This document shows, piece by piece, positions 11,348 through 58,199 of a stretch of 64,000 nucleotides of DNA (position 1 is the first letter of the stretch; the number at the start of each line of letters is the position of its first letter). The position numbers and the translations under genes are program-made. The DNA is taken from assembly GCA_043779525.1 (NCBI GenBank), contig JAYWED010000031.1, forward strand, positions 4,240 through 68,239, in the 5' to 3' direction. The DNA is from Candidatus Eiseniibacteriota bacterium (GTDB lineage Bacteria > Eisenbacteria > RBG-16-71-46 > SZUA-252). The notes beneath the pieces were generated by a model. The model saw only the letters and a list, made by a program, of their open reading frames with translations. It made no database searches and was not told the DNA's origin.

Positions 11348-13896
11348 TCAAGGGGATTGTCCGGAAGGAGTTACCGGCGGAGGCTCGCGCCATGGGACGG
11401 GCTCGGGCGAAGGGTGCGCCCGCGTCGAGACCAAGGCGCCTCCGCGCGTGAAAGTGACCCGGATCGCGCCCTCCTGGTCCGTGCGAAACACCCGCGCTCC
11501 GCTTCTCAGATATCGGCCCACGGTCGCCTTATCCGGGTGTCCGAATCTGTTTCCCTCACCGCATGAGATGAGCGCGATTCGCGGCTTCATGGCGGCGATC
11601 CAGGCTGAATCGCTGGAGGTCTTGCTCCCGTGATGCGGCACCTTCATGACCGAGACAAAGGGAACCGGCCCCCGCCCGAGCAGCTCCATCTCGGCATCGT
11701 GCTCCACGTCCCCCGCGAAGCAGACCGCGGTCCCGTCCATCTCGAGGAAGGAGACGAGCGAGCGGTTGTTCTCGCCGGCGTTTCCGCTCCTGCCCGCGGC
11801 GCTCGAGCCCTCCTCCGTCCGGGACAGCCGCACGCGCTGCCCCGCTCCGATCGTCACCATGGTGTCGGCGCGAATCGCCACATCCCGCGCGTCATGGCGC
11901 GAGAGCCCGGCACGGAGCGGGCGGCGCCAGCCGCCCAGGCGATCGCTTCCGTTCTCGAAGAGCGCGCCCAGGAAGCCCCGATTCGCGAGCCATCCAAGCC
12001 CGCCATAGTGGTCGCGGTGCGCGTGCGAGAGAATCGCGGCATCGATCCTCGTGATCCCTTCCGCGCGCAACGCGGGCTCGACGGCGGAACGCCCCTCGTC
12101 GCGGGACTCCGTGGAGGGCCCCGCGTCAAGGAGGATCGCCGCCCGGCGCGTGTGGACGATCGTCGCGTCGCCCTGCCCCACGTCGAGCATGAGAATCCAC
12201 TCCGAGCGATCCCTGGCGCGCGGCGCGGGCGCGAACGGAACGGCCCACGCGACGAGAAGCGCGATCAGCGCGCAGACGCGCGCGTTTCTCCGGTCCTCCG
12301 GCCGGCGCTCGACGCGCGCATGCTCCCACACGGCGGCCGCGAGAAGGAGCAGCGCGAGCGCGCACGCGATGGCGCCGGCCGCCGGAAGCGACCGCGCGGG
12401 AAGCGGCGGAATCGCCGACGCGGCCGACGCGGTCAGCCGCAACATGAGAAGCCCCGAGAGCTCCACGGCGCCAGCGGCGGCTTGCTGGAACGGAGGCGCC
12501 AGCAGAGCACAGCCGAGGTGCAGTAGTAGCGCTGACATGAACAGGCCGCATAGCGGGATGACGGCGAGATTCAGGAGAAGGCCCGCGACCGGCATCGCTC
12601 CGAACTGGAGGACCTGGATCCCGAGTGTGCCCGCCTCGGCGAAGGCGCTCTGCTGGGCGAGCGAGAGAAGCCCGGAGGAGGCGATTCGTGCGCGTGCCCG
12701 GAATCCTCGCGTCCCGGGGCTCTCGGGGAGCGCGAGCCGGAGTCCCCCGGAAGCCAGAAGGCCCAGCACCGCCGCGAACGAGAGCTGAAAGCCGGGGTCG
12801 CCAAGAACGTCCGGGACCGAGAGGTGGATCAGGAGTCCGGCGATTCCCCACGCGGCAAACGGCCGGACCGAGGACCCGCGCATCCGGCCGGCCCTCATCG
12901 CCGACCAGAGGATCGCCGAGCGAACCGCCGAGGCCGGCGCGCCGACCAGGAGCACGTAGCCCCAGAGCGAGAGAAGCTCCAGCCAGAGCGCGGGCCCCGC
13001 GGGAATCCGGAACGCGATCGCGAACGCGGCGACGATGCCGGCGAGCACGCACACGTGGAGCCCCGATATCGATAGGATGTGGATCGTGCCGCCGTCGCGG
13101 AAGGAATCCCGAATGGAAGGCAGGATTCCCGAGCGGTCGCCGAGCGCCATGCCCCGCGCCAGGGCCGCGACAGGGGCGCTCAGATCGCGCGAGAAGAACC
13201 GGGCCAGGCGGAGGCGCAAGGGATGCCGCTCCAGGGAACGCTCGGGTCCTGTGCGTCCGGGAGCACCGCGATCGACGTCGGGTCCGCGTCCACGGTGCCC
13301 GCGATCCCGAGGCGCGTGAGCCAGCGCCCCGGCGCGGCACTCCCGGGATTCCGCGCGTCCTCGGGAGGGCGGTAGCGGCCTGTGAAGCGGAGTGTGAGGC
13401 CCGGTGTCGCCCACGCCGGAGGAGGACCGTCGTCGCCGAACCGCACGAGAAGCGTCGCCGCGCAGCGCGCCCAGGCGTCTCCCACGCGCACCGAGGTCAC
13501 ATCGAACGTGACCACCGGATGGGCGGCGTCGGCGGCCACGGCGTCGGCCACCCTGCCTTCGAGCGCGACCGTGACGCCGCGTGGGTGGACCGGGAGCGGC
13601 GTCTCGATGCGGTCCACCTCCCCGCACAGCGAACCCCCCGCCGCGATCAGGGCGGCCACACCCAGGAGAATCTCGCCGCGGCGCAGCCAGAGCGAGGATC
13701 GGACGCGCGCGTGAATGCAGCCTTTCGCCAGAGCCAGAACCAGAAAGAGCGCGCCACACACACAGGACACCGTCCGCAGGCTCTCCTCGTGAGCCGCGGG
13801 GACCGGAGCGAGCCGGGCGAGCGCATGCCCGAACAGGAGCGGAACCCAGAGGACGACGGGCCACGGAAGGCGAGCGGACGGCAGGGCGAGGCGCAC
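11348..13896 (-). CDS. comEC: DNA internalization competence protein ComEC/Rec2 (N-terminal DUF4131 + competence domain + MBL-fold), apparently interrupted by a 1-nt frameshift near 13180-13300
   Basis: N-terminal part in ORF 13180..13896 (TM helices, ...RNPGSAAPGRWLTRLGIAG = NPGxFDxxxWLxxxGI motif); remainder in the other frame of ORF 11348..14179 (...GDRSGILPSIRDSFRDGGTIHILSISGLHV... competence domain; MBL motif ILMLDVGQGDATIV...HAHRDHYGG). Frames differ by 1 nt (14179-13896=283). Confidence 0.7.
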
Positions 13897-13953: not shown

Positions 13954-16119
13954 TCAGTTCTTGACTGGGATCGTGTAGATCTCGGAGTAGAGTTCGCGCC
14001 CCGCGGCGCCCACGCCCTTGAAGTAGACCCTCACCTGGCGCGCGCTGTTCCGGAGCACCGCGGGAGGAAGCAGCGTCGCGAATACCTTGGATGATGCGTC
14101 GATCCGCGTCATCCGCCGGGCCTGAAACGACCCTCCAGGAGGCGCGGCGTAGGCCCAGAGCGCCATCGACTGGTCCCACTCCCCTTCCGGCAGCGCGATC
14201 GTGATCGGAAGCGGATCGGAGATGGAGAGCGCGGCGGGGGGCGTGAATCGAAGCGGATCCTCCGACCTTGCGCCGAACTCGGCTGAGAGGAACTGCTCGC
14301 CGCCCGGTTTCACTTCCAGCACCGAGATCTGCGGCGGGAATCCGCGGCGCAGCACGCGGAAGCTGTGGGTGCCGGGCTTCAGATTGACGGTGAGCGGCGT
14401 CACGCCGCGCATGTCGCCGTCCACCCAGACCGGATCGCCCCGTCCGTCCTCGAATCCGGTGTCGCTCAGGACCGCGCTTCGGATCGTGACCCTGCCCGCC
14501 TCGGGGAGGGCTCCGGGACTGCCGATGAGTTCCACCCGCGTGCCCTGGAGAATTTCGACCTCCTGCGCGCTCGAATTCAGCCCCGGACCCCCGAAGCGAA
14601 CCAGGTGCCTCCCGACGACCAAGCTTTCGAGCGCCACGGGAGTCGAACCGACATAGGCACCGTCCACGTAGACGTCGAGGACGCGCGCGGGCTCCGAGGA
14701 GCGAAATCCGACCGAGCCCAGGACGCGCGGGCGGAGCGTGACCCGGCCGCCGGCGGCTACGTCCACCGTGTCGCGCCGCGTGCCGTAGACGCCCCAGTCC
14801 ATGTCGATGTGATGCGTTCCCGGGGCGACCGCGACGTCAGTGGCGGGCGTACGCGTTGGAAGCCGCACACCGTCGACCTTCACGGCGGCCCCGGGCGGGT
14901 CGGAAAAAAGATCTAGATCGGCTCCCGTGCCCAGGGGAGACGCGGCTTCCTGGGCGGCTGGCCGGCTCGTTCCGATGATCCCCGGCATGATCGCGCGGAT
15001 CAGGAGCGCGAGCGCGATGATGGCGAGCGCCCCACCGCCCCAGAGGGCGATCCACTCGTACCACGGGCGGCGCTCGGCGAACGCGCCCATGGAGGAAGGC
15101 GGCGGCAACGCGAAGTCGCGCCCCGCGCCTGCGGCCGCGCCCGCGGCGGCGGCCTCCGGGACGGCGGATACGGCCGATGCGGTTTCCAGCGAGGCGGGTT
15201 CGCCGCTGGCGCTTTCCGAAGCACTTCTCTCCGGTTCGCCCTGCTCTGCGTGCGCGAACGCTGGAGCGCCGGCGCGCCGCGAGTCCGGCTGCGTCTGCGC
15301 CTGCTCGAATGCCTCCGCCTCGGCTACCTGCGCCGCCGCCTCCGCATCGGCCTCCTCCGCCTGCGACGGACCGGCGGCCGGATGGACCGCGGCCGGCTCG
15401 ATCGGCTCCAGCTCCAGCGGACCCAGCTCTCCCGGCTCGAGAACGTCGGGATCCGAGATCCGCTCGTGCTCTCCGGCGAGCGCCGCGATGGCGACGCGTC
15501 CGCTCGCGGGCGCGCCCGAGCACGCGGTGCGAAGACGCGACATGACGTCGCGGGTCGAGGCCAAGTCCCGCGCGAGCAGGCTCAATTCTCCATCGCGGAG
15601 CGGATGCGTCGCGAGGATGTAGCAATCGCCGGCCCGCGCGTTCAGGGGAACCATCTCGAGCCTTACCTGCGCTTCGGATCCGAGCGAGCCTTCCGGAGAA
15701 GCGTCGGAGCTTTCGGGAGAGGGACGCCCCAGCCGGGAGAGGACTCCGGCGCGGAGCCGATAGCAGGGACAGTCCCCCGCCGTCAGCGCCATTCCCTCGC
15801 CGTCCTTGAAGAGCACGACGAGGACCGAGATCCACGTCCGCTCCCGGTCGGGGCGCGCCATGAGATCCGCGTGCACGGCACGGAGCGTCGCGATCGCGCG
15901 GCGCAGAGGGGGCTCGCGAGGATCCGTGTCCTCGCCGAGCGCCAGGGAGAGTTTTTCCCGAACCCAGATGGTCGGATCGATGACGTCGGAAAAGGTCATC
16001 GCGCCGCGGCCCACGAACGCGAAGCCCCGCTCGGGATCGAGGTGCGCAAGCGCTCCCTCCCGATCGGGGCTCCTCACGAGGCCTTTAATGAGGACCTGCG
16101 TCGAGTCCGCAGTGTTCAT
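13954..16119 (-). CDS. Membrane-spanning protein: N-terminal PP2C-like (possibly degenerate) phosphatase domain, acidic low-complexity linker, one TM helix, C-terminal PEGA-domain repeats
   Basis: Start chosen at MNTADSTQV (upstream 71 codons lie in AT-richer non-coding-looking DNA). PP2C-like blocks ISVLVVLFKDGEGMALTAGDCPCYRLRAGVLSRL and ARAGDCYILATHPLRDGELSLL; TM WYEWIALWGGGALAIIALALLIRAIM; PEGA-like units AAVKVDGVRLPTRTPATDVAVAPGTHHIDM, DPVWVDGDMRGVTPLTVNLKPGTHSFRV. Confidence 0.6.
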   Translation of the reverse strand: MNTADSTQVLIKGLVRSPDREGALAHLDPERGFAFVGRGAMTFSDVIDPTIWVREKLSLALGEDTDPREPPLRRAIATLRAVHADLMARPDRERTWISVLVVLFKDGEGMALTAGDCPCYRLRAGVLSRLGRPSPESSDASPEGSLGSEAQVRLEMVPLNARAGDCYILATHPLRDGELSLLARDLASTRDVMSRLRTACSGAPASGRVAIAALAGEHERISDPDVLEPGELGPLELEPIEPAAVHPAAGPSQAEEADAEAAAQVAEAEAFEQAQTQPDSRRAGAPAFAHAEQGEPERSASESASGEPASLETASAVSAVPEAAAAGAAAGAGRDFALPPPSSMGAFAERRPWYEWIALWGGGALAIIALALLIRAIMPGIIGTSRPAAQEAASPLGTGADLDLFSDPPGAAVKVDGVRLPTRTPATDVAVAPGTHHIDMDWGVYGTRRDTVDVAAGGRVTLRPRVLGSVGFRSSEPARVLDVYVDGAYVGSTPVALESLVVGRHLVRFGGPGLNSSAQEVEILQGTRVELIGSPGALPEAGRVTIRSAVLSDTGFEDGRGDPVWVDGDMRGVTPLTVNLKPGTHSFRVLRRGFPPQISVLEVKPGGEQFLSAEFGARSEDPLRFTPPAALSISDPLPITIALPEGEWDQSMALWAYAAPPGGSFQARRMTRIDASSKVFATLLPPAVLRNSARQVRVYFKGVGAAGRELYSEIYTIPVKN

Positions 16120-16128
16120 TAGAACGCC

Positions 16129-16158
16129 ACAATATGGGGGCCGTCGGGATCGTGTCAA
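16129..16158 (-). promoter_or_regulatory. Candidate sigma70-type promoter (TTGACA-N18-TATTGT) immediately upstream of the PP2C/PEGA gene start; would give a leaderless or near-leaderless mRNA
   Basis: Minus-strand reading: cgaTTGACAcgatcccgacggcccccaTATTGTggcgttctaATG. Confidence 0.25.
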
Positions 16159-16227
16159 TCGGACGTTGTCTTCATTATTGGCACCAGTATTGCAATGACT
16201 TAGCGGCGAGGGCTCGCTGGAAGGCAA

Positions 16228-16247
16228 AGACCCCCGCACGGGGGTCT
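16228..16247. other. Perfect GC-rich hairpin (7-8 bp stem, 4-nt loop) inside a divergent promoter region
   Basis: aGACCCCCgcacGGGGGTCt located between divergently transcribed genes (minus gene start 16119, plus gene start 16418). Confidence 0.4.
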
Positions 16248-16274
16248 GGAACCCGGAAATCAGGTACTTGTCGC

Positions 16275-16303
16275 TTGCATTTTGCACTGCCGGCTCGTAG
16301 TGT
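16275..16303 (+). promoter_or_regulatory. Candidate sigma70-type promoter TTGCAT-N17-TAGTGT for the downstream LysM/SLT gene
   Basis: ttgcattttgcactgccggctcgtagtgt in AT-richer intergenic DNA ~115 nt upstream of ATG 16418. Confidence 0.3.
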
Positions 16304-16417
16304 GCGCGAACTGCCCCATCAATCTCGTGCATTCACGCGATCGGTATAGTTCGCGGACGACTCACGACGAGGCCTCGAGTCCGCGAATACGTTGCTCTTC
16401 AACCCACGGAGGCCCCG

Positions 16418-17866
16418 TTGGCAATCAGAACTCGCTTAAGCATTTTTCGGGCGATCGCTCTCCTCCCGGCACTCGTGCTGCTCGTCCACGTTCCCGCGCG
16501 CGCTGAAGCGCTCGGGCCGGACATGCCTGCGTGGACCATCCAGCCCTGCTCCGACCACGATTCCGGCAAGGAATTGCTCGACTCGAACCACGAGTCGACT
16601 CCGGTCTCCGACACGCTCGAGCGCACGCTCGCCAGCGTCGCGAAGGCCGAGGACATGGTCCAGGCGGGCAAGAAGGCCGAAGCCCAGTCCGCGATTCAGG
16701 CGGCCCTGCTGAGCCTGGACGGGGTGCCGAAAAGCGACCCCGGCGTCAAGGAAGTGCGTCGGAAGCTCGACGATCTTCGCGACCGATGCGACAGGCTGGC
16801 CGCGAGGGACGCCCCGCCTAAGACCGACGATGGCGCGGACGGAGCCGGCACGGAGCCCTCCAAGCTCCGCCCGGTGAAGATCGAGCACAACGACCGCGTG
16901 GACAAATGGGTCGACTACTTCACGGGCCGCGGGCGCGACCAATTCCAGAAATACCTCGCCCGCTCCGGCGTCTACATGGAGCTGCTCGCGCACAATCTTC
17001 GTGCCGAGGGTGTTCCGGAGGAGCTGGCGAATCTGGTTTTCGTGGAGAGCGGATTCAACATGCACGCCAAGTCCATGGCGCGCGCCGTGGGTCCGTGGCA
17101 ATTCATCCGCGGAACCGCGAAGCTGTTCGGCCTCAAGATGACGCCCTACGTGGACCAGCGTCGCGATCCCGAGCTGGCGACGCGCGCCGCGGCCCGCTAT
17201 CTGCGCCGCCTCAACATCATGTTCGACGGAAGCTGGCCTCTGGCGCTCGCCGCCTACAACAGCGGCGAGGGAACCGTTCAGCGCGCGATCCGGCGTCAGG
17301 GCACCGACGACTACTGGTCGCTTCGCCTCCCGAGGGAGACCCAGGAGTACGTGCCCCAATTCTTCGCGGCCATGGAGATCGCATCCGATCCGGAGCGGTA
17401 CGGCTTCGAGCTGCCGACCGATTCTCCGTTTCGCTTCGACGAGGTGCTGCTCCGTGGACCGGTGGATCTCAAGCTGGTATCCGGGATCACGGCGATCCCG
17501 TTCGAGGATCTGCAGCAGCTGAACCCCATGTTCGTCCGCCATCGCTCGCCCGCCGGCGTGGACGGAACGGCGATCCGTGTTCCAAAGGGCAAAGGGGACG
17601 AGGTGCAGGAGCTTCTGCAGACGTATTACAAGCCGAAGGCTCTGACGAAGTCCGAGCGCCGGGACGCGGACAGGGCGCAGCGCAAGGAGATGCGCCATTC
17701 CTCGCGTCGCCACCATCGGCGGGGGCATACGCACCTCGTACGGCGCGGAGAGACGCTCTCCCAGATCGGAAAACGCTACGGGACCACGCCGGCTTCGATC
17801 GCCCGCTTGAACCGACTCAGCGACTCGGGACAGCTCCGGGCCGGGCAGAGGCTCCGCATCCAGTAG
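16418..17866 (+). CDS. mltD: Membrane-bound lytic murein transglycosylase D-like (signal peptide, SLT domain, C-terminal LysM)
   Basis: Signal peptide AIALLPALVLLVHVPARAEA; SLT motifs VFVESGFNMHAKSMARAVGPWQFIRGTA...AAYNSGEGTVQRA; C-terminal LysM HLVRRGETLSQIGKRYGTTPASIARLN. Confidence 0.8.
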   Translation: MAIRTRLSIFRAIALLPALVLLVHVPARAEALGPDMPAWTIQPCSDHDSGKELLDSNHESTPVSDTLERTLASVAKAEDMVQAGKKAEAQSAIQAALLSLDGVPKSDPGVKEVRRKLDDLRDRCDRLAARDAPPKTDDGADGAGTEPSKLRPVKIEHNDRVDKWVDYFTGRGRDQFQKYLARSGVYMELLAHNLRAEGVPEELANLVFVESGFNMHAKSMARAVGPWQFIRGTAKLFGLKMTPYVDQRRDPELATRAAARYLRRLNIMFDGSWPLALAAYNSGEGTVQRAIRRQGTDDYWSLRLPRETQEYVPQFFAAMEIASDPERYGFELPTDSPFRFDEVLLRGPVDLKLVSGITAIPFEDLQQLNPMFVRHRSPAGVDGTAIRVPKGKGDEVQELLQTYYKPKALTKSERRDADRAQRKEMRHSSRRHHRRGHTHLVRRGETLSQIGKRYGTTPASIARLNRLSDSGQLRAGQRLRIQ

Positions 17867-44915: not shown

Positions 44916-45746
44916 TCAGGAGGAGGGCTTCTTCACCCGGGCGCGCCACGGCATCTTCACGAACCACGAGTCGTAGAGCGAGTCCCAGGTGCCGCTCGCG
45001 CGGAGCTCGAAGATCGTGAGGTTCAGCCAGTCGCGGAATTCGATGTCCCCTTTTCGGACGGCGATTGCCAGGTATTCCTTCGTGAAGGGCTCGAGCATGG
45101 CAAACGTGCGGTCCGGCGACTCCTGCGCGCGGATGGCGACGTAGGGTTTGTCGTACACCATGATGTCGGCCCGGCCCGCGTCGACTTCGAGCGCGGCGTC
45201 CGATTCGGACTCCATGGTCTTGATGGTCGCGTTGTGGAAGAACTTGCGGGCGGCGATCTCGCCGGTCGTGCCGAGGCGGGTCGCGACGATCACGCCGGGC
45301 CGGTCGAAGCTCCGCACGGTGAGCCCCGGGGTCGGCTTGTACTTGACGTGGTTCACGAGGAGGGCCTGCCCCGTCTCGAAGTAAGGATCCGTGAAGTCGC
45401 ACCGCAGAGCGCGCTGGGGCGTGCGCGTCATGCCGGACAGGATCATGTCGAACTTGTCGGAATTGAGATTGGCGATGATGGGGTCCCAGTCGCTCTTCCG
45501 GAACTCCACCGTGACGCCGTTTCCCATCTGCCCCGCCACGTAGCGCGCCACGTCCACGTCGAACCCGACCATGTTGCCGTCGGTGTCGACCATCTCGAAG
45601 GGCGCGTAGCCCGGGTTCATGCCGACCCGGAGCACCTTGGCCGCGAGAATCCTGTCGATCGTGGACTGCCGCTCCGCGGTCGGCCCGGGGCCGCCGCAGC
45701 CGACGAGCTGGAGCATGAGGAGCGTGAGGGGAAGGACGAAGCGCAT
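44916..45746 (-). CDS. Amino-acid ABC transporter substrate-binding lipoprotein (PBP type 3)
   Basis: Lipobox LQLVGCGG; LRVGMNPGYAPFEMVDTDGNMVGFDVDVARYVA... typical of polar amino-acid SBPs. Confidence 0.8.
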   Translation of the reverse strand: MRFVLPLTLLMLQLVGCGGPGPTAERQSTIDRILAAKVLRVGMNPGYAPFEMVDTDGNMVGFDVDVARYVAGQMGNGVTVEFRKSDWDPIIANLNSDKFDMILSGMTRTPQRALRCDFTDPYFETGQALLVNHVKYKPTPGLTVRSFDRPGVIVATRLGTTGEIAARKFFHNATIKTMESESDAALEVDAGRADIMVYDKPYVAIRAQESPDRTFAMLEPFTKEYLAIAVRKGDIEFRDWLNLTIFELRASGTWDSLYDSWFVKMPWRARVKKPSS

Positions 45747-57860: not shown

Positions 57861-58199
57861 CTATTCGAAGCTCTTCAAGGCGTCCTTCTCCGTATCGTAC
57901 ACCTCGAATACCAGCGAGAGCTTGGTCACGACGAAGATGTTCTGGATCTTCTTGTCCACCGCCGCCAGCTTCATCTTGGCGCCCCGTTTGGCGTAGCTCG
58001 TATGCCCCCCGATGAGGACGCCGAGAGAGACGCTGTTCATGAAGGTGGTCTTCTCCAGATTGATCAGGAGCTTCTTGTTCCCGGCCTCCGTCAGCTCCCG
58101 GATCTTGCCCTGGAGCTCGTCGGTCTCCTTGCCTCCGAGAAGCATCCCCTTCGGCGTGAGCACCGTGACATCGCCGACCGTTCGAACATCCAGACTCAT
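57861..58199 (-). CDS. STAS-domain protein (SpoIIAA-like anti-sigma-factor antagonist)
   Basis: MSLDVRTVGDVTVLTPKGMLLGGKETDELQGKIRELTEAGNKKLLINLEKTTFMNSVSLGVLIG... with Ser at the position of the phosphorylatable SpoIIAA serine. Confidence 0.6.
   Translation of the reverse strand: MSLDVRTVGDVTVLTPKGMLLGGKETDELQGKIRELTEAGNKKLLINLEKTTFMNSVSLGVLIGGHTSYAKRGAKMKLAAVDKKIQNIFVVTKLSLVFEVYDTEKDALKSFE

Follow-up and report, generated by a model that had tools for sequence, protein, structure and literature searches.

What does a bacterial membrane protein do with a cytoplasmic domain that resembles a PP2C protein phosphatase and carries GRGAM where the metal-binding motif DGHGG is expected? The question is raised by one gene in a stretch of 64,000 nucleotides (nt) from a Candidatus Eiseniibacteriota bacterium (contig JAYWED010000031.1, positions 4,240 to 68,239), referred to below, at its full length, as the window. 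The gene, called here the PP2C-like/PEGA gene, is a minus-strand open reading frame (ORF; 16119..13954) of 721 codons and a stop, identified from the ORF list and its translation, and its complete orthologues have an identical architecture. An original prediction, made from the DNA letters, had read in it a PP2C-like domain, an acidic linker, a single transmembrane (TM) helix and PEGA repeats, possibly expressed from a leaderless transcript. Here we report that Pfam, hydrophobicity and composition agree on this layout, and that profile-profile comparison and structure prediction, the checks proposed for the fold, place the N-terminal domain (N-domain) within the PP2C fold with its metal-binding residues largely gone.

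The gene is real and conserved in uncultured soil bacteria (Candidatus Eisenbacteria). We recovered 48 related loci: seven are genome matches, and 41 come from metagenomes of soil and groundwater. The seven best genome matches are metagenome-assembled genomes with 73-94% identity over the N-domain, five of them labelled Candidatus Eisenbacteria and two labelled Dormiibacterota and Binatia. Complete orthologues are 683-821 residues long, with 50-94% identity over the N-domain, and the gene behaves as a conserved core gene, single-copy and with fixed neighbours across loci. From these matches, the family seems to occur only in Eisenbacteria-like lineages of soil and groundwater. In public records its members are annotated as "PEGA domain-containing" or "hypothetical", and we found nothing specific to this protein family in the literature on PEGA with PP2C or on Eisenbacteria.

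Fold and metal site of the N-terminal domain

Curated families do not recognize the N-domain (residues 1-215; 15475..16119, minus strand). In isolation it gave no Pfam match to PP2C (PF00481), PP2C_2 (PF13672) or SpoIIE (PF07228), even at E<=10, the whole protein had no PP2C match in Pfam either, and NCBIfam returned no PP2C match for either the whole protein or the isolated domain. As a single sequence searched against the PDB, it found PppA best, at an E of 0.33 that is suggestive only. A family profile retrieved PP2C phosphatases and nothing else from the PDB (PppA, E 3.8e-4; tPphA, about 5e-3), a second family profile again found PP2Cs only, and in a search of 1.84 billion representatives the profile recovered its own family followed by 24 distant proteins (E 5e-6 to 8e-4), 23 of which carry Pfam PP2C_2. 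When the family was aligned by hhalign with 17 canonical PP2Cs among these distant matches, the probability was 98.6% over 189 columns. In the reverse direction, a hidden Markov model of canonical PP2Cs matched this ORF (E 1e-11) and no second one among the 533 ORFs of the window. The blocks singled out by the original prediction, TAGDCPCYRL and AGDCYILATHPL, fall on the PP2C motifs "GDSRxYR" and "PGDxxLLCSDGL" in profile and profile-profile alignments, and the order and spacing of the motifs agree across the whole domain.

A resemblance of this kind could be spurious, arising as a chance or compositional match in a GC-rich ORF or as an artefact of the multiple sequence alignment (MSA) with which AlphaFold was seeded. 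The silence of Pfam and NCBIfam and the single-sequence E of 0.33 would fit such an explanation, as would the first model, which was built from a family-only MSA without canonical PP2Cs and is weak (mean predicted local distance difference test score, pLDDT, 53). The top 50 Foldseek matches of that same model are nevertheless all PP2C structures (tPphA, 1e-6; PstP, 3e-6), which removes the worry of circularity. Every independent route leads to PP2C alone, with motif order and spacing matching from end to end, and we reject a spurious resemblance as very improbable. Taken alone, the Pfam and NCBIfam results would misleadingly suggest that no PP2C domain is present. Judged by these sequence and model comparisons, the N-domain has the PP2C alpha-beta-beta-alpha sandwich fold.

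The state of the metal site was read from a census of 42 non-redundant family members, with positions mapped by sequence and profile alignments. Motif I (RxxN(E/Q)D) has become R16-S-P-D-R-E21, in which R16 and E21 are invariant and Glu is a conservative replacement at the Asp position. Motif II (DGxGG) has become (G/A/V)37-R38-G-A-M, "GRGAM" aligning with "DGMGG": position 37, that of the motif's Asp, is Ala, Gly or Val in 42 of 42 members (Gly in the window protein), and position 38, where canonical PP2Cs have a Gly that binds metal 2 through its carbonyl, is Arg in all 42. The "GDS" Asp is retained as the invariant D116 within an invariant GD(C)PC motif. The "SDGL" Asp (motif VIII) corresponds to position 172, which is Arg in 21 members, His in 20 and Gln in one, or is aligned to a gap; the window protein has H172. 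At position 205, that of the "DN" Asp (motif XI), the window protein has Ala. The window protein carries substitutions at three of the four canonical Asp ligands. Between "LTRDH" and "RALG", the flap has about 18 residues fewer than in canonical PP2Cs.

Selection still acts on the domain despite these changes. The ratio of nonsynonymous to synonymous substitution rates (dN/dS) is 0.12-0.28 in the N-domain, close to the 0.09-0.14 of the PEGA region, whereas the linker between them is almost neutral (0.4-1.7), and purifying selection of this strength beside a near-neutral linker indicates that the N-domain is functional. Its invariant residues in the census include RSPDREGALAH, R38, DVIDP, GDCPC and LGSE. 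As mapped, the canonical binuclear metal centre cannot form, and the domain is probably best read as a pseudophosphatase, a possibility raised originally from the replacement of DGHGG by GRGAM and now backed by alignments and by a metal site that is degenerate throughout the census. Since the bridging Asp and the "DG" Asp are gone, actual (de)phosphorylation is unlikely, which weakens the earlier suggestion that the protein couples envelope sensing to Ser/Thr (de)phosphorylation. The alignments place the N-domain in the PP2C superfamily at the level of fold; it ought not to be classed with the PP2C phosphatases, because the defining catalytic features are missing and it falls below every curated family threshold.

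The best profile match outside the family, P0029 (583 residues, metagenomic; E 4.6e-6), has no Pfam domain. It too resembles a degenerate PP2C, in which GDCRAYRLR, "LLCSAEL" and "VNIT" replace Asp-bearing motifs and a long Pro/Ala-rich region follows; it may represent an independent or intermediate pseudo-PP2C lineage.

Envelope half, start codon and promoter

After the N-domain come an acidic linker rich in Ala, Glu and Pro, one TM helix, three PEGA repeats and a C-terminal domain of 103 residues. The linker (residues 216-352; 15064..15474, minus strand), recognized by its composition and poor conservation, varies in both length and sequence among orthologues, and residues 216-366, from the linker to the start of the TM helix, include 27 Asp/Glu as against 7 Lys/Arg. 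At the linker start, the motif GPLELEPIEP (residues 233-242; 15394..15423, minus strand) is kept as PLE(L/I)(E/D)P(I/L)(E/R)P in the alignment of close and distant orthologues while the surrounding linker varies, and is a possible docking motif.

The sole hydrophobic segment of the protein (residues 355-385; Kyte-Doolittle 19-residue mean above 1.6) holds the TM helix (residues 356-378, WIALWGGGALAIIALALLIRAIM), which together with the juxtamembrane motif F.ERRPWYE spans 14986..15084 on the minus strand. Motif and helix (F.ERRPWYEWIALWGGGALAIIALALLIRAIMPGI) are nearly invariant among closer orthologues, and dN/dS over this part is about 0.10-0.15 against closer relatives. No signal peptide was found at the N-terminus of the 721-residue protein. 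From the single hydrophobic segment and the absence of a signal peptide we infer an N-in topology, in which the PP2C-like domain is cytoplasmic, one TM helix crosses the membrane and the PEGA part is extracytoplasmic.

Pfam PEGA (PF08308; gathering cut-off 20.8 bits) scores 74.2 bits over the whole protein. Scanned singly, the three repeats (residues 405-462, 483-531 and 561-608; 14734..14907, 14527..14673 and 14296..14439, minus strand) score 31.7, 29.6 and 27.7 bits, so that each stands above the cut-off. At least three such repeats had been expected after the TM helix, a count with which Pfam agrees; the description of this region has to be corrected in that a further conserved domain follows them. 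This C-terminal extracytoplasmic domain (residues 619-721; 13957..14265, minus strand) had no match in Pfam, NCBIfam or PDB sequences, and has 24 invariant positions among 13 orthologues and a dN/dS of 0.14-0.30. PEGA has been described as a cell-surface domain (PMC2447325), and is treated as a peptidoglycan-associating domain when it lies downstream of a TM helix (PMC7159879).

Comparison of the orthologues assigns the start of the gene to the ATG at 16119, as the equivalent Met is the first residue in most database homologues and in seven of the seven genome orthologues. A longer reading of 792 residues from 16332 was rejected as non-coding because indels of 1 nt, not multiples of three, break the upstream frame in orthologues (spacer of 16, 17 or 18 nt; gap of 8 or 9 nt); the limits of the in-frame ORF upstream also differ among orthologues.

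Immediately upstream, a promoter scan identified a sigma-70-type promoter (16129..16158, minus strand) consisting of TTGACA (16158-16153), an 18-nt spacer and TATTGT (16134-16129). The element had been noted before as ending about 7 nt from the ATG; it is present, and 9 nt separate the end of its -10 hexamer from the start codon. We compared 38 distinct upstream sequences from the 48 loci. All 38 have a -35 of TTGACA and a -10 of TAT[TC][GC]T, separated by a spacer of 16-18 nt and variable sequence, and in all of them the gap from the -10 to the start codon is 8-9 nt and a Shine-Dalgarno-like purine run is absent. The hexamers are kept where the protein is only 50% identical, and synonymous divergence (dS) is 0.6-1.2 even between closer genomes; their conservation reads as a strong phylogenetic footprint of a functional promoter. 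Were transcription to begin at a canonical +1, about 7 nt past the -10, the leader would measure 0-3 nt. Since the promoter adjoins the start codon in every relative examined, a leaderless or near-leaderless mRNA, as originally suspected, is likely and well supported by the comparison; with a gap of 8-9 nt, the mRNA is equally likely to have no leader or a very short one.

This arrangement is not confined to one gene. The consensus TTGACA-N16-18-TANNNT occurs eight times in the window against 0.01 expected, and at five of the eight a long ORF with high GC content at third codon positions begins 6-9 nt past the -10 (16119, 45746, 55021, 61120 and 62757). With five of eight consensus promoters abutting a start codon, leaderless expression seems to be common in this Eisenbacteria genome and not special to the PP2C-like/PEGA gene. 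The other four starts, at 45746, 55021, 61120 (minus strand) and 62757 (plus strand), belong to a putative lipoprotein/solute-binding protein, a MotA/TolQ/ExbB-like protein, another lipoprotein and a further ORF. Leaderless mRNAs are familiar from Actinobacteria, Deinococcus and archaea. The present case is like them in having a -10 element a few nucleotides before the start and no Shine-Dalgarno sequence, and differs in that its transcription start site is predicted from promoter sequence, so that a leader of 1-3 nt is possible.

Proposed function and rival explanations

Taking these observations together, we consider it reasonably likely that the gene encodes an envelope-binding, single-pass protein with a partner-binding pseudophosphatase, made from a leaderless or near-leaderless mRNA. 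The protein would sit in the inner membrane in a type-II-like orientation, with its PEGA beta-sandwich repeats and C-terminal domain in the periplasm/envelope, where they would most likely bind a cell-wall component, as the literature interprets PEGA domains in this way. The PP2C-fold domain would be tethered inside the membrane through the long, acidic and presumably disordered linker. It appears to keep the phosphate-contacting Arg of motif I (R16), an acidic residue in motif I (E21) and the "GD" Asp (D116), and to have gained Arg38 and Arg/His172 at former metal-ligand positions. From R16, the invariant Arg38 and R121/R123 we infer, as the most economical reading, that it binds phosphate or a phosphoprotein without hydrolysing it. 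Its partner would be cytoplasmic, plausibly a phospho-Ser/Thr protein, and would be retained at the membrane without hydrolysis, while the conserved TM helix, with its GGGA small-residue face, and the juxtamembrane motif could couple partner binding to the state of the envelope domain. The strong sigma-70-type promoter ending 8-9 nt before the start would yield an mRNA with a leader of at most about 3 nt or none, and this mRNA may run on into comEC.

Several observations weigh against this proposal. Position 205 is Asp or Glu in 39 of the 42 census members, which leaves the family ambiguous there, and with E21 and D116 invariant a reduced or non-canonical metal site is possible for the family. 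The residue mapping is based on alignments of 15-25% identity and on a predicted structure, and the best N-domain model came from an MSA that included canonical PP2Cs. To our knowledge, the ligand specificity of PEGA is without experimental proof. The conserved neighbourhood contains no kinase, FHA, STAS, anti-sigma or other obvious phospho-signalling gene, which also leaves the partner-switching link once suggested unsupported, and its gene order is conserved region-wide and thus provides no argument for a link with any particular neighbour. A STAS protein had been placed about 40 kb away in the window; the only STAS-like ORF there is indeed distant (57861-58199, about 42 kb from the PP2C-like/PEGA gene).

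The acidic residues just mentioned could instead belong to a working enzyme, either a still-active phosphatase or another PP2C-fold hydrolase (compare the deAMPylase SidD and the dephosphocholinase Lem3). Such an enzyme might use a remodelled, perhaps mononuclear, metal site formed by E21, D116 and the Asp/Glu at 205 together with His172, or the invariant Cys119/Cys117, and might be a PstP-like membrane phosphatase whose activity is governed by the envelope domain. The strong purifying selection on the N-domain and the invariance of R16, E21, D116 and C119, along with the acidic residue at 205 in most relatives, are what one would expect of it. We nevertheless regard retained activity as unlikely, since the metal-bridging Asp of every active PP2C is Ala, Gly or Val in every member of the census, the metal-2 carbonyl position is an invariant Arg, position 172 varies among Arg, His and Gln and so fits poorly with conservation as a ligand, the window protein itself carries Ala at position 205, and the flap bearing the third-metal site is truncated. 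It is likewise doubtful that the main role of the protein lies in the structure or assembly of the cell envelope, for instance as a tether between inner membrane and peptidoglycan or an organiser of the neighbouring lytic transglycosylase or ComEC, with the PP2C-like domain serving as a folded cytoplasmic plug or oligomerisation module without a role in phospho-signalling. Several observations would suit a structural role: the gene is single-copy and is invariably flanked by comEC and a divergent SLT/LysM lytic transglycosylase gene, conservation within the protein is highest in the TM helix and the extracytoplasmic domains, and no signalling partner is encoded nearby. The invariant surface-type residues listed above, however, cluster on motifs of the PP2C active-site face, which argues for binding of a ligand or partner rather than a passive plug, and with synteny extending over more than 15 kb, adjacency is weak evidence of a functional link.

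The pseudophosphatase proposal can be carried further. The protein could be the receptor of a lineage-specific envelope-surveillance circuit, in which the PEGA repeats would sense the condition of peptidoglycan, the TM helix would relay it to the membrane-tethered pseudophosphatase, and capture or release of a phosphoprotein by this domain would feed back on the divergent lytic transglycosylase gene. The two genes do share a compact region with a sigma-54-type element, a sigma-70-type promoter and a covarying hairpin in a 5' untranslated region (5' UTR). We think this extension improbable; if true, the protein would be a bacterial pseudo-PP2C receptor that spans the membrane and has a defined regulatory target.

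Conserved neighbourhood and relation to known systems

The gene order around the PP2C-like/PEGA gene is PilZ, outer membrane protein-like, GlgC-like, GlgC-like, the divergent SLT/LysM lytic transglycosylase, the PP2C-like/PEGA gene, ComEC, PurN and PurC, and is kept in all loci with enough flanking sequence, synteny in the lineage exceeding 15 kb. comEC begins 57 nt after the PP2C-like/PEGA gene with no terminator-like site between them, and co-transcription of the two is possible. In the window, comEC (13896..11348, minus strand) is interrupted at about 13220 and read in two frames, the first at 13896-13180 and the rest within the 14179-11348 ORF. Compared with the closest orthologue, L001, whose ComEC is intact (848 residues; DUF4131, Competence and metallo-beta-lactamase domains), the window has two extra nucleotides (CT) that cause the split. 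Such a split would be either an assembly error or a pseudogene.

The intergenic region separating the two divergent genes is conserved over about 300 nt. A known RNA was considered as the reason, and a scan of Rfam by E-value gave no match; the conservation is mostly explained by three promoters and one 5'-UTR hairpin of the lytic transglycosylase gene. Directed to that gene (TTG start at 16418) is a sigma-54-type element, TGGCACCAGTATTGCA (GG-N10-GC; 16179-16194, plus strand), which lies only 20 bp from the opposite-strand -35 of the PP2C-like/PEGA gene. All 42 distinct upstream sequences of the orthologous loci contain TGGCA[CT]-N5-TTGC[AG] at a similar distance, and no gene for an enhancer-binding protein was seen near the element. 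A second, sigma-70-like promoter of the lytic transglycosylase gene, TTGCAT-N17-TAGTGT (16275-16303, plus strand), is found in the form TTGC[AG]N-N17/18-TA[AG][CT][GC][CT] about 80 nt past the sigma-54 element in 36 of 42 orthologous regions, and would yield a 5' UTR of about 110 nt.

Within that 5' UTR, a hairpin (16349-16388, plus strand) has a stem of 9-10 bp, GUUCGCGGAC / GUCCGCGAAU, and a conserved loop of about 20 nt, ...CUC(C)AC.ACG(A/U)GGCCUCGA. The stem sequence differs between clades with compensatory substitutions: both sides have changed in eight of ten pairs, and covariation scores 0.368 where shuffles score 0.163, none of 500 reaching the observed value. G-U pairs favour the plus strand. 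Across 435 kb, a covariance model of the hairpin, which has no Rfam match, detected a single copy at each locus in 36 of 45 sources and nothing anywhere else. The hairpin may represent either a novel cis-regulatory RNA or an inverted repeat to which a protein binds. A separate GC-rich hairpin, GACCCCCGCACGGGGGUC (16213-16248, both strands), sits between the sigma-54 element and the second promoter and is conserved, with some compensatory changes, in the closer loci; read on the minus strand, it precedes UCUUUGCCUUCC and is terminator-like.

The nearest known layout is that of PstP of mycobacteria, which has a cytoplasmic PP2C domain, a linker, one TM helix and an extracellular domain. PstP-type membrane PP2Cs share this arrangement with the PP2C-like/PEGA protein, whose topology we deduce from its sequence. 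Compared with PppA of P. aeruginosa (6jkv), tPphA (2j82) and PstP of M. tuberculosis (1txo), three of the four Asp ligands are replaced here, an invariant Arg occupies the position of the metal-binding Gly, the flap is some 18 residues shorter, no PP2C threshold of Pfam or NCBIfam is reached, and the extracellular part consists of PEGA repeats. Unlike PstP-like phosphatases, moreover, the gene has no Hanks-type kinase or FHA gene adjacent to it at any locus with flanks.

As a PP2C-fold pseudoenzyme, the N-domain resembles the C-terminal domain of RssB (RssB-C; E. coli / P. aeruginosa), TAB1 and PHLPP2. These are soluble, each derived independently from other PP2C branches, and none is tethered to an extracytoplasmic sensor, whereas the replacement pattern of invariant Arg38 and GDCPC is specific to the present family. 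With other PEGA envelope proteins (PF08308), including TM-anchored signalling proteins whose PEGA is C-terminal, it shares tandem repeats of 50-70 residues after a TM helix; it differs from them in its previously unrecognised cytoplasmic PP2C-like pseudoenzyme and in the extra 103-residue C-terminal domain that belongs to no family.

The protein is a lineage-specific variant built from known parts and not a new kind of system. No current view is overturned by it; its fusion pattern resembles that of PstP, and its function is putative. The comparison of promoters offers rare sequence-level evidence of a promoter consensus in Candidatus Eisenbacteria and of leaderless mRNAs that are apparently common there. 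Reading the cytoplasmic half as a degenerate PP2C adds a membrane-anchored bacterial case to the short list of PP2C pseudophosphatases (RssB-C, TAB1 and PHLPP2), and makes envelope signalling in a soil phylum without cultured members accessible to experiment.

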